Position numbers and translations under genes: made by a program
The notes under the pieces: model-generated
Told to the model about the DNA's origin: nothing
The model's input: only the letters and a program-made list of their open reading frames with translations
Database searches by the model: none
Assembly: GCA_026702755.1 (NCBI GenBank)
Contig: JAPPBX010000017.1
Coordinates: 13,743-77,742, forward strand
From: Candidatus Poribacteria bacterium
GTDB lineage: Bacteria > Poribacteria > WGA-4E > WGA-3G
Direction of reading: 5' to 3'
DNA: 64,000 bases
Shown: positions 3,382-41,512 of the stretch, in pieces
How positions within the stretch are numbered: the stretch's first letter is position 1
Layout: every line of letters begins with the position of its first letter

Positions 3382-3553
3382 AATGGCTATCAGCGGTCAG
3401 GTCGCTGCGCTTTCAGCAATCAGTTAAGAAACCTATGTGACGGTTGCTCGTGTGCTCACTCCCACAAACTGCTGATTACCGACTGCACTTACTAATATAG
3501 CACAATCACTCTTTGCTGAAGGCTCATTGCTGACAGCCGACAACCATAAAAAA

Positions 3554-13526: not shown

Positions 13527-13544
13527 TATTCTATCCAGTAGGGG

Positions 13545-13575
13545 CGAGGTGACCTCGCCCCTACTGCGAACTTAA
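13545..13575. terminator. Perfect 13-bp-stem hairpin between convergent genes (candidate bidirectional terminator)
   Basis: agtaggggcgaggt-ga-cctcgcccctact lies immediately after the LamG-2 stop and is flanked by A/T-rich sequence. Confidence 0.45.
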
Positions 13576-16975: not shown

Positions 16976-17569
16976 TCAATCGCTTCCACGCTGTGAAGGC
17001 AAGTATTCGACGAGTTCATACCACTTTGCAGCCATCTCGTGTGCAGGAATAGGTTTCTTCTTCCATGCATCAGTACACCGTTGGCGATAGTCAAGTCCGT
17101 ATTCAGAAATAATCCACCGCTCGTAGTCGCCTATCCATGCGATACCTTGAGTGAGCAAGCTGAAAACGCGACGCCACGCTTCCACATCACATGGATGCGT
17201 AAGCTCAGGGAGTTGCTCCGGTTTCCATATAGGCAACGAAAAATCGACCGCTGCTGTCTGTTTGGGCGCGAATTTGTAACGCTGCAAGAAAAGCCCTCCT
17301 CGGCCCCCATCGCCATAGAAAAACCCGAATCCCCATAAAATAACTCGGCTTCTGCCAGAGTCACGCCACTCATAAGCGGTACTTCCGTGCTTGCCTTCCG
17401 GCGGTCGATGTTTGGTAAAACCGTAGGCGAGCAAAGCATTTTCCTCTGCCCGGCGAATATCCTGTCCCCAACACCACAACTGTTGGTCCAACAGCGTCGT
17501 CCCGATCTTCCTGACCTTGTTCAATGCACCTGACCAAAGCGCTGATTCGTCGTCAGTTCTGTCAGACAT
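16976..17569 (-). CDS. Hypothetical protein (197 aa)
   Basis: Long ORF with no recognisable motifs. It is co-oriented with the neighbouring zinc-related genes. Confidence 0.35.
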   Translation of the reverse strand: MSDRTDDESALWSGALNKVRKIGTTLLDQQLWCWGQDIRRAEENALLAYGFTKHRPPEGKHGSTAYEWRDSGRSRVILWGFGFFYGDGGRGGLFLQRYKFAPKQTAAVDFSLPIWKPEQLPELTHPCDVEAWRRVFSLLTQGIAWIGDYERWIISEYGLDYRQRCTDAWKKKPIPAHEMAAKWYELVEYLPSQRGSD

Positions 17570-17611
17570 GACTTATTCCCCCATAAGAAGCCGCTTCTAC
17601 CTCTTCTCAAG

Positions 17612-17800
17612 GTCACTAAGCAATTCAAAAGCGGTGTCAAGAACTGTCGGTTTCTTTGCACTATTTCTTAACATGAGCCACTTTTCCTCTGTGTTACACA
17701 CGATTCATCACTACCCTATGACATTCAAGGGTAGTGATGAATCTTATCGGCACTTATTTCAAAATAACCATCCGCTTCATCTGATGGAAAGACGGCGTGG
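17612..17800. repeat. Copy 1 of a ~180-bp conserved 3'-end element containing a 13-bp perfect inverted repeat (ttcatcactaccc ... gggtagtgatgaa)
   Basis: It is near-identical to 21817..21990 (aaggtcac[tg]aagcaattcaaaagcggtgtcaagaact.tcggtttctttgcactatttcttaacatgagcc ... ttcatcactaccc-loop-gggtagtgatgaatcttatcggcactta.ttcaaaataaccatccgctt). It overlaps the last codons of the 1078-aa gene. Confidence 0.6.
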
Positions 17801-20800
17801 ACAATCGGTAGAAATAAACACCACTTGAAACCCGCTCACCCACATCATTTCGACCATCCCAATAGGCAGCACGTGATCGACCTTGATAGAAACCCGCTGG
17901 CTTGAAGCCAAGCGAAAGCGTTCGCACCAATCGCCCTGTCGTATCGTAAATTGATAGCGTCACAGGGGCTGACTCCGAAAGGTGATAAGGTATCCACGTT
18001 TCCGGATTGAACGGGTTGGGATAATTCTGCAACACCAGGCTCTGCTTAGGTACGCCAATCCCCTTAAGTGTAATAGGAAGAACAGCGTTTGCAAGCGCCT
18101 CTGGTGTCACGACGAAACTCAGCTTCTCCGAAGCAATCTCTCCGGTTGCATCCGCAACGGTGACTTCCAGAGTGTCGCCAACCTGGACGACGCTCTGGTA
18201 GGAGAGATCGGCAGTCGCTGCGGCAAAGTAACCGTCTCGCACACGATTCGTCATAATAGCGTTCGTCCGCAGGTTTCGTACAGTGACCAGATAGCCTTCA
18301 AGGTTCTGCACACCTTCTAATTGCCCACTGACAACGAATGCCCAAGTACTACTTGGCGTGTCAATTGATCTTGCAATCGGTGCCGCAGGAACTTGCGGTT
18401 GATTTGTCCACGGTGCCCCGACAAAGGCAACCTGTCGGGCGTGCGGCACGTTGACGATGTATCCCTTTGCCCCTTCAATCGGGAATCCGTTGTCTGGTGC
18501 ATCCGGTGTCCAACCAACGAACTTTTGGTTGACATCATCAAGCTTAATTACCGTCGTTGCGCCAACCATCTCCGCCAGCGACCGAGCGTTCATCGGCGTG
18601 CGAGGCTTCAACGGTGAGGAGATCATGTTCAAGCCTTTGGAGAGAGAGGCGTAGTAGACCTGGCTGAAGTCATCTCCGTCTGTAGGCATTGGGGTGGCAA
18701 TGAAGCCGTGAGTCTGCTCTTCGCCGTCTTCCGAATGAATTTCAAACCAACCGACAATGACACCATCATCGTTAATGGCTTGTGCAACGGTGGTTTCTGC
18801 GCCGGGAATCCCGAATAGGTGAAACTCGCCCTCTGGAGTCCGTAGAAATCCCTGTACTTCAGAGAAATCAAGCGGCGCAGTGTGACCAACAATCCTGCCA
18901 TGATTGTCGATGTCATCGGGGAGCGTATGCCGCTCTGCGTTAATAGACAAAGTTGTGAACTCGCCATCCTCGTAAATTAGCCCATCAATAAACTCTGTTG
19001 GTGTAAATCCTGATTCAGGTAGATTCCAGCCCGCCATCACACCGGCGTTATTGATACCACGAAAAACATTGCCGCCAACACCGCCCGAAGAGGGAACTTG
19101 CCCGAAAGTCCCGTCCGGTTCGCGAAGAAAACTGGTGATGACGATGTCGTTTTCTGTTGGGAAATCGAAATGATACGAAGTGAGCTGACCGAGGTCGTTA
19201 ATGCCCCACCCGAAGTTATCGGCTGCACCCGGATTGACTGTGATAAACATACCGTCCGGTTCTCTCAGGAATCCGTGCTGCACGCCATCCGCGTCTTTAT
19301 ATCGACCCGTGATTTGGCCGGATGCATTGATTCCGAATGCCCGTGTGTCTGTTGCCCCTTCTGGAGCAATCGTCTCGAAGACACCATTTTTGAGCCAGAA
19401 TCCTTTCCGAACAGCGTTTGCATCCGCATAGCTCCCGACGATGTCTCCAGCGTTGTTGATACCGAAAAGCTCTGTCTCCGACGCACCTGCGAACGGTATA
19501 TCGACGACCTCAATATGATACGGTACACCTATTGTCAGGTGTATACCATCTGTGGAGAGGTCGGCGACAGACTCATGGCTGTGGTCAGCGTCATGTGATG
19601 GCGCAGGTCCCAGCGGTGCAACCCAATCCAAGGCTGTCATGTTCACTGGCTGCCCCTCGACAGAAAATGTCCTGCTGACTGATACTGTGTCAAGGTCAAC
19701 CTCAAGAATCTCACCGGTATTGGGATTGCTGACATAGGCGAACCCACTACCGACAGTCAGCGCGGGGCGGAGACCGTCCGCACCACTGAAATCTGCAACC
19801 ACTTGTGTCGATCCGAGCAACGTCCAATCGCTTGGGTTGAACACCTGTAACAGACCGTCAACGGTCAGCACTGCTAACCTATCTCCATGTTTCTTGTCAA
19901 AATCGAAACCTCTGTAGTCTGTTGGGAGTTGCTGAATGTCGTTCGGATCAAGCTCGGTCGAAGTGGGGTGGATACGGACGAGGGCTTTGTAGCCTGGATC
20001 CGGGCGGCTACCGTAATTGCCGATGGCAAACGGCTGGGCGTGATGAGACCTGACGATGCTCGTTCGCAGACCATCAGGATAAGCAATCTTGTGTGCGGAG
20101 AACAGACCGGTTACCGGGTCGTGGGTCATCACAAAAACGCCACCATCCCCCGTGCCATCCTCACGTTTCTCATTACAACCAGCTATGAAATGTTCACCGA
20201 CTATCGTTTCACCGTGCATACCGAGGCAGGATGCTTGGAAATCTTCCTTGTCGTTGAACGTTTGAACAATATTTCCGTGTTCATCAACTACCGCAAAGCC
20301 ACTCGGAAGTGATCCGAACTCACGGTCAGGATCCGGGAGCGAGAAAATTATCTTTCCACCGTGCACCGGTGCTCCAGCACCGTGCTGCGGCGCCGAGGTC
20401 AATATGAGCGTGTCCGGGTTGGGTAAGAACAGGTCTTCCTCGCGCACGGTGACGTTCTTTGAATCTACACCCTCACCAAAGTTGCCATCGAAGTGGATGT
20501 TAACGCGCCCATCGTGTGAAACAAAGTGAATGGGTCTTTGCGAGTTTGCGAGTTCGCCGGTCAGGTTGAACGGCAGCAAGCTCGGTCTGCCTTTCTCCTT
20601 ATCGAAATGATCGCCGTGTGCTTCGAGGTACAGACCGGAGTCGATGAAATTAACGCGATTGGCACCCGCTTGAACAGCGACTGCGATGCGCCCGCTTTCG
20701 GTCGTGTAAACACGTGCAGACCCTTCCACCATGAAGGTTTCTATCACTTCTCCATTGTCAAGTTCAATAAGTTGGAGTAAACCGGTTTCGCCATCTGCGA

Positions 20801-20927
20801 CAAGTAACCGACCCAGCGGCTCAGCATGCTCATCATCATACTCTTGTGCGATGGCTTGCATTGAGAGGATCGAACAAGACATCAAAAACATAAGCAGAGC
20901 CAGGGTGGCTCTCATGCAAGTAACCAT
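17754..20927 (-). CDS. Large secreted surface protein: N-terminal beta-propeller-like region (possibly AztD-like zinc chaperone fold), central HAF-family repeats, and a T9SS-type C-terminal sorting domain
   Basis: The ORF is open from 20990 (TTG). The likely start is the Met right after the conserved leader element (MVTCMRATLALLMFLMSCSILSMQAIA signal peptide). HAF-like repeats (FGINNAGDIVG, AFGINASGQITG, GWGINDLGQLT, FRGINNAGVMAG, AQAINDDGVIVG). C-terminal VLQNYPNPFNPETWIPYHL...VTLSIYDTTGRLVRTL...WDGRNDVGERVSSGVYFYRL is typical of TIGR04183/FlgD-Ig-like CTDs. Confidence 0.7.
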   Translation of the reverse strand: MVTCMRATLALLMFLMSCSILSMQAIAQEYDDEHAEPLGRLLVADGETGLLQLIELDNGEVIETFMVEGSARVYTTESGRIAVAVQAGANRVNFIDSGLYLEAHGDHFDKEKGRPSLLPFNLTGELANSQRPIHFVSHDGRVNIHFDGNFGEGVDSKNVTVREEDLFLPNPDTLILTSAPQHGAGAPVHGGKIIFSLPDPDREFGSLPSGFAVVDEHGNIVQTFNDKEDFQASCLGMHGETIVGEHFIAGCNEKREDGTGDGGVFVMTHDPVTGLFSAHKIAYPDGLRTSIVRSHHAQPFAIGNYGSRPDPGYKALVRIHPTSTELDPNDIQQLPTDYRGFDFDKKHGDRLAVLTVDGLLQVFNPSDWTLLGSTQVVADFSGADGLRPALTVGSGFAYVSNPNTGEILEVDLDTVSVSRTFSVEGQPVNMTALDWVAPLGPAPSHDADHSHESVADLSTDGIHLTIGVPYHIEVVDIPFAGASETELFGINNAGDIVGSYADANAVRKGFWLKNGVFETIAPEGATDTRAFGINASGQITGRYKDADGVQHGFLREPDGMFITVNPGAADNFGWGINDLGQLTSYHFDFPTENDIVITSFLREPDGTFGQVPSSGGVGGNVFRGINNAGVMAGWNLPESGFTPTEFIDGLIYEDGEFTTLSINAERHTLPDDIDNHGRIVGHTAPLDFSEVQGFLRTPEGEFHLFGIPGAETTVAQAINDDGVIVGWFEIHSEDGEEQTHGFIATPMPTDGDDFSQVYYASLSKGLNMISSPLKPRTPMNARSLAEMVGATTVIKLDDVNQKFVGWTPDAPDNGFPIEGAKGYIVNVPHARQVAFVGAPWTNQPQVPAAPIARSIDTPSSTWAFVVSGQLEGVQNLEGYLVTVRNLRTNAIMTNRVRDGYFAAATADLSYQSVVQVGDTLEVTVADATGEIASEKLSFVVTPEALANAVLPITLKGIGVPKQSLVLQNYPNPFNPETWIPYHLSESAPVTLSIYDTTGRLVRTLSLGFKPAGFYQGRSRAAYWDGRNDVGERVSSGVYFYRLSTPSFHQMKRMVILK

Positions 20928-21000
20928 AAATCGTGAAATAGCGACAGAAAAGTCGCGCTGAAAAAAATACGTAAACAATGTATTCTCCAATTTTTTTATC
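20928..21000 (-). promoter_or_regulatory. Conserved 5'-UTR element (copy A) that abuts the start codon and contains the GCGAC-N6-GTCGC stem-loop
   Basis: mRNA sense is aaaaaaattggagaataca.tgtttac.tatttttttc.g.gcgacttttctgtcgctatttc.cgatt.ATG. It is shared almost base-for-base with 26254..26330. Confidence 0.55.
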
Positions 21001-21335
21001 TAATTAGGGCTTACGCAGATCGCTCTTTTGTAGCATAAACTCTCTAACGAAGCGTCATAGACTCAAAATTGCGTAAGTCCTGCTAAATGAAATTACACTT
21101 AACGGCGAACATGCCACGCGAAACATATAAAACGCGTGTTGACATGTAGCCAGTAACGGATGCTTTGCGTAATAGATGTGCTTATGGACATCCCGAAAGC
21201 CGACCACGCATGGGTCCACAATCAGATAGCGTCTACTACAGAGCAAAGCAGCGGTGTACAAAGCGCGGGGCGCGTCATAGGTAACCCCGCGATCTTCGTA
21301 CAATCAAGGATATAAAGGAAAAACAAAATCTGCCT

Positions 21336-21707
21336 TTAAAAGGCATAATTTGCGAGTTCAGTGGAGAATACAGGTGGGGCACGACTTCGGGTGTGGATGA
21401 CCAGTTTTAGAGGGATAGAAGTGTCTTCATAAAGTCGGAGTTCAGTATGAAAAAAGAAAGGTGCGTTGAGAGCAAAAGGTTCAACCTCGAAACTGACGTG
21501 CTGGCTGCAAAAGAAGCAGGCTGCACAGGTATTCTCGCGCTGCGAGTGTTCGCTAGGGCAATGCTGGCAATGCGAATGTTCGCTATGATCGTGTGTCAGT
21601 TCGATGAGACCCAGCAGCGCGACGTAGCAACATAAACCTGCTAAAACACAGATTTTCAAACTACGCCTAAATATTAACTTGTTGGGAAAAGTCGTACCGT
21701 TTCTCAT
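21336..21707 (-). CDS. Small membrane-anchored His/Cys-rich protein (copy A)
   Basis: MRNGTTFPNKLIFRRSLKICVLAGLCCYVALLGLIELTHDHSEHSHCQHCPSEHSQRENTCAACFFCSQHV. There is a paralog at 26873..27220 with many synonymous codon differences over the first ~50 codons (GGT/GGC, CCC/CCA, TGC/TGT, TAC/TAT, CAC/CAT), which argues for a real coding gene under purifying selection. A consensus promoter lies 45-50 nt upstream. Confidence 0.6.
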   Translation of the reverse strand: MRNGTTFPNKLIFRRSLKICVLAGLCCYVALLGLIELTHDHSEHSHCQHCPSEHSQRENTCAACFFCSQHVSFEVEPFALNAPFFFHTELRLYEDTSIPLKLVIHTRSRAPPVFSTELANYAF

Positions 21708-21783
21708 ACACCAGAACCTATGGTTATGATTAAAAAAAATGAATGCGAATAAACTTGACGTAAATTATAGCACGCGATTGTGT

Positions 21784-21812
21784 CAATGTCAAATAGAACT
21801 TAAAAAGTTGAT
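21784..21812 (-). promoter_or_regulatory. Perfect-consensus sigma-70 promoter (TTGACA-17-TATAAT) reading toward the small His/Cys ORF and leader A
   Basis: The minus strand reads tTTGACAttgacacaatcgcgtgcTATAATtta. The -35 hexamer is duplicated in tandem (TTGACATTGACA). Confidence 0.6.
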
Positions 21813-21816
21813 AAGG

Positions 21817-21990
21817 TCACGAAGCAATTCAAAAGCGGTGTCAAGAACTCTCGGTTTCTTTGCACTATTTCTTAACATGAGCCGTTACACTCCTGCGAAT
21901 ATACAGATTCATCACTACCCAATGACCTTCAAGGGTAGTGATGAATCTTATCGGCACTTACTTCAAAATAACCATCCGCTTGAACGGTTT
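21817..21990. repeat. Copy 2 of the ~180-bp conserved 3'-end element with a 13-bp hairpin (ttcatcactaccc aatgaccttca agggtagtgatgaa)
   Basis: See 17612..17800. It lies immediately 3' of the ZnuA-like gene (minus strand) and its last bases overlap that gene's stop. Confidence 0.6.
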
Positions 21991-22954
21991 ATAACTCCGA
22001 TTTCCCAATCAAAGCATGGACAATCGTATCAATATTATGTCGGATCATCCCGATGTAGGTACCTTCAGGAGTTCCCTCGTTTCCCATAGCATCTGTGAAG
22101 AGCACACCACCGATCTTCACATCAAATCCTTTTGACTTCACAGCGGCTTTCACGGCTTCGAGACTCCGTGGAGAGACGGATGACTCTACAAAAATAGCAG
22201 AGATACGCCGGTCCGCAATAAACGTCGCCAATTCCTGTACATCAGCGATACCGACTTCTGTCGCAGTGCTAACACCTTGTAATCCGCGCACCTCAAACCC
22301 GTACCCCTTTCCGAAGTAGTTAAAACAGTCGTGCGCCGTCACAAGGACGCGTTGCTGAGATGGCACGCGTTCCACTTGCGACTTTACGTATGCGTCGAGT
22401 TCCATGAGTTTCGTGAGGTAGCGTTCAGCATTGCTTCGGTATAGGACAGTATTATCCGGATCGAATTCACTCAGGGCATCGCGAACCTTTCCCGCCGCTA
22501 GCATCCAAAGTTTCACGTCAAACCATAGGTGCGGATCGTAGAGTCCCTCGTATTCTGCGGGTGTTAGCAGTAGACTCCGATCTACGGCATCTGTTACGGC
22601 GACCGTCAGCGTGTCCTCCGACATCTTCGCAAGGATGTCCACCATTTTTGCTTCAAGGTGCAGCCCGTTATAGAAGATGATGTGTGCTGAACTCAGTTTT
22701 TGAACATCTTTAGGTGTCAGGTTGTAAAAGTGTGGGTCTACGCCAGGTTCCACTATCCCGGTCACCTCAACGCGCGTACCGCCAACATTTTTAACAATAT
22801 CAGTAATCATACCGATCGTGGCAACAACGCGAAGTTTGTCGCCTGTGGCAGCACCCGGTTGTCCCTTCGGATCACAGCCAGCCCATACCAATATACCTAT
22901 CAAACACACTGAAATGTATATTCTCTGCATAATTTTATGCATTTTCTGCCTCAC
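21989..22954 (-). CDS. znuA: Periplasmic metal (Zn/Mn)-binding lipoprotein of an ABC uptake system, ZnuA/TroA family
   Basis: Lipoprotein signal (...LIGILVWAGC). TroA-fold signatures (LRVVATIGMITDIVKNVGG, VDPHFYNLTPKDV, DPHLWFDV, VTAHDCFNYFGKGYGFE). No znuB or znuC gene is adjacent. Confidence 0.75.
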   Translation of the reverse strand: MRQKMHKIMQRIYISVCLIGILVWAGCDPKGQPGAATGDKLRVVATIGMITDIVKNVGGTRVEVTGIVEPGVDPHFYNLTPKDVQKLSSAHIIFYNGLHLEAKMVDILAKMSEDTLTVAVTDAVDRSLLLTPAEYEGLYDPHLWFDVKLWMLAAGKVRDALSEFDPDNTVLYRSNAERYLTKLMELDAYVKSQVERVPSQQRVLVTAHDCFNYFGKGYGFEVRGLQGVSTATEVGIADVQELATFIADRRISAIFVESSVSPRSLEAVKAAVKSKGFDVKIGGVLFTDAMGNEGTPEGTYIGMIRHNIDTIVHALIGKSEL

Positions 22955-25713: not shown

Positions 25714-26253
25714 TTATTGAACAGTTACCGGTATGAGAAGTGCTCCCGTGAAGTCTGGATGGTCCCCGTGAAGGAGTTGAAGTTTGATGCTCGTTTCGCC
25801 TGCCTTCAATCCCTCGAGTCCAAATCCTAATTCTTCACCATGTTCTTCTTCACCATGTTCTTCTTCACCGTGTTCGTGTTCATCTTCATGTTCCAGATGA
25901 ATCTCAATAATAGCGGAATCGTACTCCGACAAGCCCAAGTTGAAGACTTCCTCATGTCCATGCTCATCCACTGCCTCTACTTCATCGAGATGGACTTCCG
26001 CTTCGTTCGCGTCAATAAATACAACATGGACCTCAATCTCTTCACCAACGCCAACGGTGAGACCGCCTTCATGGGCACCTTGATGTTGATGATAGACCAC
26101 TTCTCCATTAACTTCCAGGTTAAAGCCGTCGGCATCGGCATGCATGGGGGCATCCGTTTCGTGGTCGTGGTCATGGTCATCTTCAACAATAGGGTTGTCA
26201 CTTTCGCCACAACCTCCCATGAGGGGAAGTACGGTGACAAAAGTTAGTAACAT
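25714..26253 (-). CDS. His/Asp/Glu-rich periplasmic lipoprotein (putative low-affinity zinc-binding protein)
   Basis: The likely start is the Met right after the conserved leader element (MLLTFVTVLPLMGGCG, lipobox LMGGC). His-rich tracts (EDDHDHDHETDAPMHADADG, HLEHEDEHEHGEEEHGEEEHGEE, LLHGDHPDF). The ORF as printed continues upstream to 26385 by translating the conserved leader. Confidence 0.65.
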   Translation of the reverse strand: MLLTFVTVLPLMGGCGESDNPIVEDDHDHDHETDAPMHADADGFNLEVNGEVVYHQHQGAHEGGLTVGVGEEIEVHVVFIDANEAEVHLDEVEAVDEHGHEEVFNLGLSEYDSAIIEIHLEHEDEHEHGEEEHGEEEHGEELGFGLEGLKAGETSIKLQLLHGDHPDFTGALLIPVTVQ

Positions 26254-26330
26254 TAATCGAGAAATAGCGACAGAAAAGTCGCACCGAAAAAAATAGGTAA
26301 ACATTTGTATTCTCCAATTTTTTTTAAACT
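26254..26330 (-). promoter_or_regulatory. Conserved 5'-UTR element (copy B) that abuts the start codon and contains the GCGAC-N6-GTCGC stem-loop
   Basis: Plus strand reads cgagaaatagcgacagaaaagtcgcaccgaaaaaaataggtaaacatttgtattctccaattttttt. Compare 20941-21000 gaaatagcgacagaaaagtcgcgctgaaaaaaatacgtaaacaatgtattctccaattttttt. Confidence 0.55.
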
Positions 26331-26872
26331 TTTTTAATCTGATGGTACACAGTATGTGCCCATTGCTTCTAAAATGGAATTGCACTTAACAACGAAAATG
26401 CCACGCGAAAGATATAAAACGCGCGGTGACATGCCGCGAGTATCTCATGCTTTGTTAAAATAATAGATGTACCTATAGACTTCCTAAAAGCGTACCATTC
26501 ATTGATACACAATTAGGTAGCATCTACTATAACCCAAGTTGCTACTAACAAATTTTGGTGTTTGTGCTTGGGTATTTCTGTGTGTTTCAACACCACTTTT
26601 CAAGTATTTCCTCACCCCAGATGAAGTTTAATAAAATATTTGGGTAATTCTATGTTCTCCAGACCCGGTAGGTGCGGTTTCCCAACCGCACCGGGCATCG
26701 GTAAAAATTACCCGATTAAATTCTTAATCTTCATGAGAGGCGATATATCTATAGAATATAGAAGAACACCACAATATGTTGCAAAGCAGAGATGTACAAA
26801 GCGCGGGACGCGTAAATAAGGACCCGCAATCTTTGGACAATAAGAGATATAAAGGAAAAACAAAATCTGCCT

Positions 26873-27220
26873 TTAAATGGCATAATTTGCGAGTTCAGTG
26901 GAAGGTATAGGCGGGGCACGACTCCAAGCGGTCGTGGTAAATCTTAAAGGAAGAAAAACGATTTCATACAGCGGAAGCGTCGTACTTGGAAGAAACGGAG
27001 AGGTGAGTACTACCACCTCAATTTCCTCTCCGACGTGTTGGCTGTTGTAGACACAGGCTGTACAAGTTTCCTCAGAATGCGCGTGTTCACAATGATCGTG
27101 ATCATGCGTGAGTGCTATGACACTCAGCAACGCAACATAACAAAATAAACCTATTAAAATGCCGGTTTTCAAACTACGCCTAAAGACAAGCGTGTTTGGA
27201 AAAGCGATGCCGTTTCTCAT
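26873..27220 (-). CDS. Small membrane-anchored His/Cys-rich protein (copy B)
   Basis: MRNGIAFPNTLVFRRSLKTGILIGLFCYVALLSVIALTHDHDHCEHAHSEETCTACVYNSQHV. See the paralog at 21336..21707. Confidence 0.6.
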   Translation of the reverse strand: MRNGIAFPNTLVFRRSLKTGILIGLFCYVALLSVIALTHDHDHCEHAHSEETCTACVYNSQHVGEEIEVVVLTSPFLPSTTLPLYEIVFLPLRFTTTAWSRAPPIPSTELANYAI

Positions 27221-27273
27221 AACCTATGCCTGTGTTATTATCAAAGCTCAGATTGCCAACAAACTTGCGATAT

Positions 27274-27302
27274 ATTATATCATACGATTATGTCAATGTC
27301 AA
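27274..27302 (-). promoter_or_regulatory. Perfect-consensus sigma-70 promoter (TTGACA-17-TATAAT) for the small His/Cys ORF and leader B
   Basis: The minus strand reads tTTGACAttgacataatcgtatgaTATAATatatcgc. The -10 is embedded in the palindrome GATATA-A-TATATC. Confidence 0.6.
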
Positions 27303-31416: not shown

Positions 31417-31567
31417 CTTTAGTTATAACTCCTTTAGGACTTACGCAATTTTCTTACGAACAACGGCTACCACACGCCGCTGGCGAGGTTTTAAACCTCG
31501 CCAGCGATGAAGCTGCGCAAGTCCTGTCCTTCTAATTTTTTATAAGACGCGTCGTCCTGTCTGCGTC

Positions 31568-36896: not shown

Positions 36897-36940
36897 GGTA
36901 GGCTTAAAGTCGGAATTCGTAAGATAATTTGTTTTGCTGG

Positions 36941-36996
36941 CGAGGTTTATAACCTCGCCTCTTTTCAAGCGGCGCGCTTTCTTAGCGCGCCCTACC
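36941..36996 (+). terminator. Tandem hairpins after LamG-4: GGCGAGGTTtataAACCTCGCC then a T-run then GGCGCGCtttcttaGCGCGCC
   Basis: gctggcgaggtttataacctcgcctcttttcaagcggcgcgctttcttagcgcgccc. A similar GGCGCGC-tttcag-GCGCGCC hairpin follows LamG-3 at 33975-33999. Confidence 0.5.
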
Positions 36997-40483: not shown

Positions 40484-40565
40484 TTATCGGTTATCAGTTA
40501 CCTTGTTGTGGCACCAAAAGTTTTGTGGACATTACAGCATATCTGAACACCATAGCACATTAACT

Positions 40566-40619
40566 TTAACCATCAACTCGTCTACAGATACTTTTGCTAA
40601 GGCGCAAGTTGATGGTTAA
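40566..40619 (+). ncRNA. Hairpin RNA-like motif, copy 1: variable 8-11-bp stem enclosing the conserved loop TCTACAGATACTTTTGCTAAGGCGC
   Basis: ttaaCCATCAACTCGtctacagatacttttgctaaggcgCAAGTTGATGGttaa. Strand is inferred from the flanking genes. Confidence 0.45.
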
Positions 40620-40650
40620 AACTGAAGACTGATAACCGACAACCCTAAAA

Positions 40651-41352: not shown

Positions 41353-41490
41353 ACCGGCAACTTTGACCAAGAACTCGCCTACAGATACTTTTGCTAAGGC
41401 GCGAGTTCGCATTAAACCAGAGCCTCTCAAACCGGCAACTTTGACCAAGAACTCGTCTACAGATACTTTTGCTAAGATGCAAGTTCTTAG
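41353..41490 (+). ncRNA. Hairpin RNA-like motif, copies 2 and 3 (tandem ~80-bp direct repeat, each with a stem enclosing the CTACAGATACTTTTGCTAAG loop)
   Basis: accggcaactttgaccaaGAACTCGCctacagatacttttgctaaggcGCGAGTTC and accggcaactttgaccaAGAACTcgtctacagatacttttgctaagatgcAAGTTCTTag. The stems differ between copies but stay complementary. Confidence 0.45.
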
Positions 41491-41512
41491 TCAAAACCGA
41501 CAACTATAAAAA

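Follow-up and report, generated by a model that had tools for sequence, protein, structure and literature searches.

The 170-bp "element" that occurs twice in a zinc-acquisition cluster of Candidatus Poribacteria is a mosaic, not a single functional unit. It is put together from an aztD-like gene end, a stem-loop, a spacer, and a conserved stretch that we call block 1. Judging from its sequence and setting, the stem-loop is most likely a lineage-restricted member of the familiar class of gene-end stem-loops. Of these pieces, only the stem-loop shows signs of selection. We consider it probable, if only just, that the hairpin, read on the sense strand, serves as a terminator without a U-tract, an attenuator, or a 3' stabilizer that was duplicated by rearrangement.

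The repeat and its place in the zinc cluster

All coordinates refer to the window, i.e., the whole 64-kb stretch of DNA that was analyzed. BLAST and repeat finding assign positions 17609-17777 to copy A of the repeat and 21813-21981 to copy B; together with a pattern search, they confirm the two-copy, two-block repeat that an initial annotation of this DNA had described. The copies are 96 to 97% identical in two blocks, which flank a divergent spacer of 24 nt: block 1 (71 nt, 97% identical) and the hairpin with its tail (76 nt, 96% identical). The hairpin pattern and the 62-nt core of block 1 each have exactly two matches in the window, with 0 expected from 100 shuffles in both cases. Neither a fuzzy search for the arms nor nhmmer profiles built on block 1 and on the hairpin core turned up a third copy in the window. 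The features that bear on the argument are the following.

16976..17569, minus strand: 197-aa gene; block 1 is always upstream of it, and its position in the cluster varies between genomes
17597..17674, minus strand: 25-codon ORF within block 1 (MLRNSAKKPTVLDTAFELLSDLEKR, then stop), intact and in frame with a fossil cobW-paralog end
17609..17777, minus strand: repeat copy A, with the 1078-aa AztD-like gene on one side and the 197-aa gene on the other (BLAST, repeat finding, alignment)
17609..17679, minus strand: block 1 of copy A, the conserved region upstream of the 197-aa gene (nhmmer, alignments)
17680..17701, minus strand: spacer A, a deleted derivative of the relatives' spacer between the hairpin and the 145-aa gene, GTGTGTAACACAGAGGAAAAGT
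17702..17743, minus strand: hairpin A, perfect 15- to 16-bp stem GATTCATCACTACCC/GGGTAGTGATGAATC (inverted-repeat search, folding)
17754..17777, minus strand: tail of copy A, real coding sequence: the 1078-aa gene's final 7 codons (KRMVILK) with their stop, where its T9SS C-terminal sorting domain ends (ORF list)
17754..20990, minus strand: 1078-aa gene, last of unit 2 (AztD-like beta-propeller, HAF repeat, T9SS type A sorting domain)
21764..21792, minus strand: promoter of unit 2, perfect sigma-70 type (12/12 plus TG), 21 nt downstream of copy B
21813..21981, minus strand: repeat copy B, flanked by the ZnuA stop and the 123-aa gene's promoter (BLAST, repeat finding, alignment)
21813..21883, minus strand: block 1 of copy B, orphaned; relatives have the 197-aa gene after block 1 here, and it is deleted in the window
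21884..21904, minus strand: spacer B, TGTATATTCGCAGGAGTGTAAC (sense), the form that most relatives conserve 3' of the hairpin (29-copy alignment)
21905..21948, minus strand: hairpin B, arms as in hairpin A; its 12-nt loop differs from that of hairpin A at 2 positions
21958..21981, minus strand: tail of copy B, AAGCGGATGGTTATTTTGAAGTAA, 24 nt with one synonymous-type difference from copy A, 3' of the ZnuA stop
21989..22954, minus strand: ZnuA/AztC-type zinc-binding protein gene, last of unit 1 (Pfam ZnuA, E = 1.3e-80)
27274..27302, minus strand: promoter of unit 1, a paralogous perfect sigma-70 type (12/12 plus TG) upstream of the 115-aa gene

All local genes are on the minus strand. In transcription order, unit 1 consists of a 115-aa gene, a 223-aa gene, a ZnuD-like TonB-dependent receptor, a MerC-like gene, and the ZnuA/AztC-type gene, after which copy B follows. 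Unit 2 begins after copy B and comprises a 123-aa gene, a doubtful 82-aa ORF, and the 1078-aa gene, which is followed by copy A. Beyond copy A are the 197-aa gene, a 145-aa ferredoxin-like gene (source annotation, "(2Fe-2S) ferredoxin domain-containing protein"), an 86-aa gene, a CobW/ZigA-like GTPase, and a WD40 protein. At the head of both units, a gene for a small His/Cys-rich protein comes after the promoter, and the final gene of each encodes an exported zinc-binding protein, ZnuA for unit 1 and the T9SS-sorted, AztD-like protein for unit 2. The ~800 bp downstream of each perfect promoter are paralogous (repeat families D5, D8, D12, D13, and D18). On this sequence evidence, the zinc-acquisition cluster is made up of two paralogous transcription units, each headed by a predicted promoter and ended by the hairpin, and to speak of the hairpin as closing each zinc-related unit was apt.

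The products of the two terminal genes both score well below the NCBIfam equivalog cutoffs (133 bits versus 400 for AztD and 215 versus 350 for AztC). The C-terminal T9SS sorting domain of the 1078-aa protein scores 30.8 bits against TIGR04183 (cutoff, 23). An exact look-up of ZnuA returned no record, probably through a different choice of start codon. The zinc uptake operons aztABCD of Paracoccus encode the AztC binding protein and the periplasmic metallochaperone AztD. The cluster studied here is like them in that ZnuA/AztC-type and AztD-like genes are grouped with CobW/ZigA-like GTPases and a ZnuD-like TonB receptor, and unlike them in that the AztD-like protein is 1,078 aa long, with HAF repeats and a T9SS sorting domain. 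We know of no hairpin of this kind described for aztABCD operons.

The stem is perfect in both copies, as initially reported, although its length is 15 to 16 bp and not 13 bp (arms at 17702-17717 and 17728-17743 in copy A and at 21905-21920 and 21933-21948 in copy B). Hairpins A and B are the two longest perfect inverted repeats of the 64-kb window, and the predicted folding energy of hairpin A is about -28.6 kcal/mol. In copy A, the stem starts ~10 nt past the stop of the AztD-like gene; in copy B, 41 nt separate it from the ZnuA stop. Each copy had been thought to overlap the final gene of its unit; this holds for copy A and the 1078-aa gene, but not for copy B, as the ZnuA stop (21989-21991) is 8 nt outside it.

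No run of U residues is found 3' of the stem on the sense strand (copy A, GAAUCGUGUGUAAC; copy B, GAAUCUGUAUAUUC), and the same is true of the relatives; for the window, the missing U-tract had been correctly described for both strands of both copies. Measured against a canonical Rho-independent terminator, the locus has the stable, GC-containing stem-loop after a stop codon and lacks the U run. Base pairs at the foot of the stem are AT-rich and those near the loop GC-rich, the opposite of typical intrinsic terminators, and a consensus scan does not list the stem.

Distribution and rearrangement among relatives

The genome scan used exact arms of 12 nt and one genome per species (185,579 species). 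It detected 23 loci with 27 hairpins, all of them in Candidatus Poribacteria MAGs, with one or two copies per genome (21 species genomes) and every copy inside the zinc cluster. By tblastn, each locus is the zinc cluster, with proteins 85 to 95% identical to those of the window. Looking for further copies, as the initial annotation proposed, thus gave none beyond the two in the window and a hairpin that is conserved in at least 22 Poribacteria genomes; in the sense that the annotation had in mind, further copies are not lacking, as they would be for a simple duplication scar. Scans of metagenomes and viruses with 11+11-nt arms returned ten unrelated hairpins with other flanks and no cluster genes nearby, and these are chance matches. 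When metagenomes were scanned with alignment patterns of the 145-aa protein, 99 stretches matched and none was confirmed. A distant homolog of this protein (P0024, 55% identity) is in a nitrile-hydratase context and is uninformative. The host of the cluster, Candidatus Poribacteria, is a sponge symbiont.

No Rfam family reached its gathering score in the window, and at E values of up to 10 the hits were eukaryotic miRNA or snoRNA models that matched a generic hairpin, at chance level. A literature search found nothing on Poribacteria zinc clusters or on the hairpin. Because the genome hits are restricted to Poribacteria and to one cluster and there is no Rfam match, the hairpin is specific to this lineage and locus and is neither a dispersed repeat nor a mobile element. 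As a lineage-restricted, conserved intergenic hairpin, it is like families held in Rfam, including motifs derived from Poribacteria. Two kinds of mobile sequence were considered and rejected. The end of a MITE or insertion sequence does not agree with the occurrence at one locus only and with the same fossil gene end adjoining nearly all copies. An integron attC site does not agree with a perfect stem without bulges, and no GTTRRRY core is present at the repeat boundaries (the GTTACAC of the spacer does not fit).

Gene order around the hairpin differs repeatedly among genomes with 85 to 95% protein identity, and at least six different junctions are inside the stem or within ~15 nt of it. The order common to the relatives is ZnuA-fossil-hairpin-block 1-197-aa-promoter-123-aa-(82)-AztD-hairpin-145-aa (L016, L020, L021/L006, and L027). 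Set beside L027, copy B corresponds to the first hairpin and its block 1, minus a cleanly removed 197-aa gene; the junction is between GTGACCTT and ATCAAC. In copy A, it is the second (aztD) hairpin that is followed by block 1 and the 197-aa gene, which lie within a shortened spacer of the 145-aa gene. The segment of block 1 and the 197-aa gene has thus come to lie behind the aztD hairpin, a gene-less block 1 is left behind the ZnuA hairpin, and two near-identical copies are the result. The two window copies share derived bases that no relative has, namely the G in GATAAGATTC and, within block 1, AGTTC. These bases point to an event that was recent or to copies that have undergone gene conversion, and private loop changes shared in L020 and in L006/L021 reveal the same process elsewhere. 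By these alignments, the two copies are the product of local rearrangement in the Poribacteria zinc cluster. The suggestion that the repeat is the end of a duplicated cassette gains support here, in the form of a mosaic of fossil gene ends and a hairpin brought together by rearrangement.

The pieces of the mosaic have separate histories. In the relatives, an aztD-like gene end or truncated fossils of one almost always precede the hairpin, even directly after ZnuA. At the position of the copy B tail, they carry longer AztD-like fossils of up to 52 codons; those of 52 codons directly follow the ZnuA stop in L002, L007, L015, L022, L023, and L027, and the fossils are shorter elsewhere. Alignment with these sequences identifies the copy B tail as a noncoding fossil of the end of the AztD-like (1078-aa) gene, and the fossils after ZnuA show that aztD once directly followed the binding-protein gene.

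The two spacers, both 24 nt, are not variants of one sequence. The spacer conserved 3' of the hairpin in the relatives is TCNGTATATTCGCAGGAGTGTAACAC, and what lies beyond it is mostly the 145-aa gene, ~35 nt downstream, or alternatively block 1 with the 197-aa gene, in some cases with an intervening insert of 60 nt. A 15-codon frame begins at an ATG of the right arm, and its stop codon overlaps the 145-aa gene's start. This upstream ORF was rejected as a conserved peptide, as substitutions in the spacer are nearly all nonsynonymous in its frame and neither window copy retains it. An N-terminal extension of the 145-aa protein from an ATG in the loop, the start chosen by gene callers, was also rejected, given in-frame stops in L001 and L014.

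Block 1 has its own origin. Its 3' half aligns (nhmmer, alignments) with the 3' end of a cobW paralog (...TILDDAFELLRDLVEK, then stop), and a cobW-paralog gene is directly upstream of the 197-aa gene in L012, L024, L025, and L028. In L029 and L030, block 1 occurs without the hairpin. Its rate of change, counted on the alignment, is ~4.5% per site versus 5.9% at the 4-fold degenerate sites of the 197-aa gene. Taken at the level of sequence comparison, block 1 is the decayed remnant of a gene's 3' end and moves together with the 197-aa gene. The 25-codon ORF within it is probably not a functional gene, being disrupted in four relatives (frameshifted in L002, L007, and L023 and without its start codon in L030). 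As a promoter, block 1 offers TTGACA but no acceptable -10 hexamer at 16 to 18 nt, and the promoter scan does not list it. The idea that the 65-nt block is an independent sRNA is therefore unsupported: block 1 is a decayed cobW-paralog end with no acceptable promoter and no Rfam match, and it evolves near neutrally, at about the synonymous rate. In this zinc-uptake cluster rebuilt by local rearrangement, fossil gene ends can be mistaken for regulatory elements or sRNA genes, which is a practical caution for genome scans.

The hairpin could still serve as the terminator of a plus-strand transcript, i.e., an antisense or independent small RNA over block 1 or over the start of the downstream gene. 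On the antisense strand of most relatives, AAUUUUCUCGG comes after the stem; the outermost pair is G-U on that strand and A-C on the sense strand, and both strands fold well. However, the antisense strand of the window has no U-tract (GAAUCUUAUC), no conserved promoter was found (the only nearby match is 9/12, at chance frequency), and the sequence upstream varies by context, being block 1, the start of the 145-aa gene, or fragments of the 197-aa gene. Together with the fossil nature of block 1, these observations make a small RNA most improbable.

Constraint on the hairpin

As the genome scan demanded exact arms, an unbiased set of hairpins was built from those upstream of homologs of the 145-aa protein, which were found by protein identity, and from the second hairpins of loci found through the first. 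Arms are exact in 7 of these 11 hairpins, and the other four (L010, L023, L025, and L027) have one or two substitutions each. Differences from the majority base are found at 2.4% of arm sites in the unbiased set (7/286) and at 0.9% in all copies, a biased set (8/884), at 5.6% of loop sites (22/396), and at 11.3% of the 4-fold degenerate sites of the cluster genes (2016/17806). The comparison of arms with 4-fold sites gives a Fisher p of 6.5e-8, which ignores phylogenetic nonindependence and gene conversion within genomes, and that of the unbiased arms with the loop gives a p of 0.055.

None of the 15 base pairs has changed on both sides and 7 of the 15 never vary, in a shallow clade (4-fold divergence, ~11%) in which few changes are expected. 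The ~6 substitution events in the arms are uncompensated and have no strand preference for G-U pairs. The case for constraint thus comes from a perfect stem that is conserved while the loop varies more freely, and not from compensatory change. Subject to nonindependence and gene conversion, the substitution rates are evidence for purifying selection on the stem.

The hairpin is also dispensable in some lineages: the stem is only 7 to 8 bp in L024, L028, and L029, and the hairpin is missing in L026 and L030. These halved and missing hairpins favor a pure duplication scar, in which hairpin and blocks would be neutral leftovers whose conservation stems from recent spread and gene conversion. So do the absence of compensatory changes, the uncompensated mismatches of the four imperfect hairpins, a block 1 rate that is near that of the 4-fold sites of the 197-aa gene, and private substitutions common to the copies within a genome (the window, L020, and L006/L021), as expected from gene conversion. 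In contrast, the arms are ~5-fold more conserved than 4-fold sites and 2- to 6-fold more than the loop, a neutral perfect palindrome of 15 bp would be expected to decay, and the hairpin has been kept through at least six independent junction events in which its neighbors were lost. We consider it unlikely that the repeat is only a scar.

The same junctions raise the question of whether the palindrome itself drives recombination, with a DNA hairpin that promotes or targets the deletions, duplications, and relocations of the cluster. Junctions are inside the left arm in L024/L028/L029, at the end of the right arm in L020 copy 2 and L013, just 3' of the stem in L016 copy 1 and L006, and at the left flank in L010 and L013, and part of an arm is duplicated in L009. 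Two direct copies of 100 to 250 bp per genome are a substrate for homologous exchange, and TnpB/IS605-type genes are near the cluster in relatives. A hot spot or recombination site nevertheless seems very unlikely to us: no recombinase is linked to the hairpin, which has one or two copies per genome at a single locus, selection that keeps the hairpin while its flanks vanish explains the pattern equally, and the conservation of the arms is left unexplained.

Candidate roles of the hairpin

A terminator variant or an RNase-protective 3' structure is, on comparative grounds, the best functional reading of the hairpin, because it is positioned after stop codons at the end of promoter-headed paralogous units and because its arms are more conserved than its loop and than synonymous sites. 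In the sense mRNA, the hairpin would form the 3' boundary of each promoter-headed unit and would act as a terminator or attenuator without a U-tract, as a barrier to 3'-5' exonucleases, or as both. The upstream message for the exported binding protein would be kept abundant, and read-through into the downstream genes would be limited or partly allowed.

The next strong promoter is within ~110 nt downstream of the copy B hairpin. In the relatives, no recognizable promoter is present in the ~35 nt between the hairpin and the 145-aa gene. A gene so close 3' of the hairpin without a promoter of its own suggests partial read-through, so that a fully efficient terminator is unlikely there, and partial read-through would point to an attenuator or a 3' exonuclease barrier rather than a full stop. 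By itself, the hairpin reveals no new mechanism. If it is a working terminator or stabilizer without a U-tract, it would be a clean, conserved test case for the ends of transcription units in an uncultivated phylum that has no transcript maps, with natural "mutants" (mismatched, halved, and deleted hairpins) at hand in related genomes.

The inverted repeat could instead work as double-stranded DNA, i.e., as an operator of 15-bp arms to which a dimeric regulator (zinc responsive or other) of the downstream genes would bind. Arm sequences conserved without covariation, the restriction to one metal-related locus, a right arm and spacer that persist 5' of the 145-aa gene even in loci that have lost the left arm, and a TATATT hexamer just after the right arm in most copies of the alignment are all consistent with an operator. 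However, the spacing of the arms drops from 12 to 6 nt in L004, where the shorter loop would break a fixed dimer geometry and the arms are kept; TATATT has no usable -35 hexamer 16 to 18 nt away; and the site is directly after stop codons, with recognizable promoters elsewhere. Zur boxes are AT-rich with a 7-1-7 arrangement, and the hairpin arms are unlike them. A Zur box or similar dimeric operator was accordingly rejected as a match, with arms of 15 bp at a spacing of 12 or 6 nt, no overlapping promoter, and the perfect promoters at least 21 nt downstream; an operator of any type is highly improbable.

Another reading, which we leave open because of the invariant arms without covariation, the restriction to a single locus, and the clustering of junctions at the stem, is a dedicated cis element of the Poribacteria zinc cluster, with an RNA or single-stranded DNA stem that is recognized by a lineage-specific factor and sets an expression ratio or directs module exchange. 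We regard such an element as distinctly unlikely. The ratio in question would be that of the exported zinc-binding proteins to the downstream cytoplasmic genes (CobW GTPase and ferredoxin-like), and the exchange would be a shuffling of the cluster's gene modules between the paralogous units at the hairpin.

For a terminator or 3' stabilizer, there are known systems with which the hairpin can be compared. REP hairpins between malE and malF of Escherichia coli are intercistronic 3' stabilizers. Like that REP, the Poribacteria hairpin is strong, directly follows the cistron of an exported substrate-binding protein in a same-strand cluster, and as a putative stabilizer would raise the upstream message relative to the downstream one. 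REPs occur in hundreds of dispersed copies and have transposase-like partners of their own. The Poribacteria hairpin is unlike them, with one or two copies per genome in the zinc cluster only, and it does not show the many copies in unrelated intergenic regions that mark REPs and dispersed palindromes.

Noncanonical "I-shaped" terminators, which have no U-tract, have been described mainly in Actinobacteria and are catalogued in WebGeSTer. The Poribacteria stem-loop, a putative terminator, resembles them in its stability, in following a stop codon within a few nucleotides, in closing a promoter-headed unit, and in lacking a U run. It is dissimilar in that its stem is AT-rich at the base and its downstream genes appear to depend on read-through. 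Hairpins without a U stretch follow ~50% of stop codons across 1060 species (PMC8355165). Their ability to terminate transcription by themselves is disputed, and work cited in that paper found that mycobacterial RNA polymerase needs the U-tract (PMC8355165). In the window, other strong gene-end hairpins (13536-13566, 31478-31506, and others) are also without a U-tract. A small stem with a U-rich tail is present after the 123-aa gene, which indicates that this organism can carry canonical-looking terminators.

Paralogous heads of the two zinc units

The heads of the two zinc units are paralogous over ~800 bp (window 20925-21708 versus 26251-27221; repeat families D5, D8, D12, D13, and D18), a stretch that comprises the promoter, the gene for the small His/Cys-rich protein, a structured spacer, and the region encoding the signal peptide common to the 1078-aa and 223-aa proteins. 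Each head carries a perfect sigma-70-type promoter with the layout TTGACA, 17 nt, TGnTATAAT:

21764-21792, minus strand, promoter upstream of the 123-aa gene (12/12 matches)
27274-27302, minus strand, promoter upstream of the 115-aa gene (12/12 matches)

The two promoter regions are 77-79% identical across ~60 nt, both promoters are accompanied by the duplicated TTGACATTGACA, and the products of the genes downstream, of 123 aa and 115 aa, are small His/Cys-rich paralogs. We consider both to be candidate zinc-regulated promoters; no Zur box was identified at either one. Across the ortholog set of the 123-aa gene (21336-21707 in the window), pairwise identity is about equal at third codon positions (0.908) and at first and second positions (0.919), which suggests that selection on this protein is relaxed or diversifying.

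Two further structures lie at or beyond the 3' ends of the small genes:

~21255-21302, with a paralog at ~26793-26840, minus strand, strong conserved hairpin TGTACGAAGATCGCGGGG...CCCCGCGCTTTGTACA (-24.9 kcal/mol), 3' of the 123-aa and 115-aa genes
21331-21345, minus strand, small stem of 6 bp with GATTTTGTTTTT after it, located right at the 123-aa gene's stop codon

Because the strong hairpin falls inside the so-called 82-aa ORF, that ORF is probably not a gene. The hairpin itself could form a structured leader for the next gene. The 6-bp stem with GATTTTGTTTTT, which comes after the strong promoter and before the AztD-like gene, is the cluster's one canonical-looking terminator or attenuator.

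An AztD-like domain fossil behind ZnuA

In related Poribacteria, a fossil T9SS sorting domain of the AztD-like type begins one codon past the ZnuA stop, with the frame unchanged. The fossils span at most 52 codons at 77-88% identity to the intact domain, and none of those in the following loci of relatives contains an internal stop codon:

L002, 3361-3516
L007, 7130-7285
L015, 423-578
L022, 1454-1609
L023, 5100-5255
L016, 3102-3191
L006, 160-237

They probably derive from a single ancestral deletion junction, with similarity maintained via gene conversion. In several relatives, TnpB/IS605 OrfB-type genes adjoin or neighbour the zinc cluster (L024, 129-1262; L027, 10496-11650; L029, 5339-6358), consistent with a recombination-prone neighbourhood.

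Other repeats in the window

Perfect GC-rich palindromes with the common core GGCGAGGT...ACCTCGCC occur at gene ends (13536-13566, 31478-31506, and 36936-36975), none of them with a U-tract; they may be a REP-like family or this genome's usual terminator style. One 69-nt element that contains a hairpin (AACTTTGACC...CTACAGATACTTTTGCTAAGGCGC...) occurs in three intergenic copies of 71-83% identity (40562-40630, 41359-41427, and 41437-41505). The CTGAC/CTGAT-rich 28-nt motif AACTGACCGCTGACAACTGACAACCATT has six copies (28 nt each, at 3521, 11117, 36015, 40620, 48494, and 55489) and may be a common 5' leader or promoter-proximal motif; a gene starts directly 3' of most of them.
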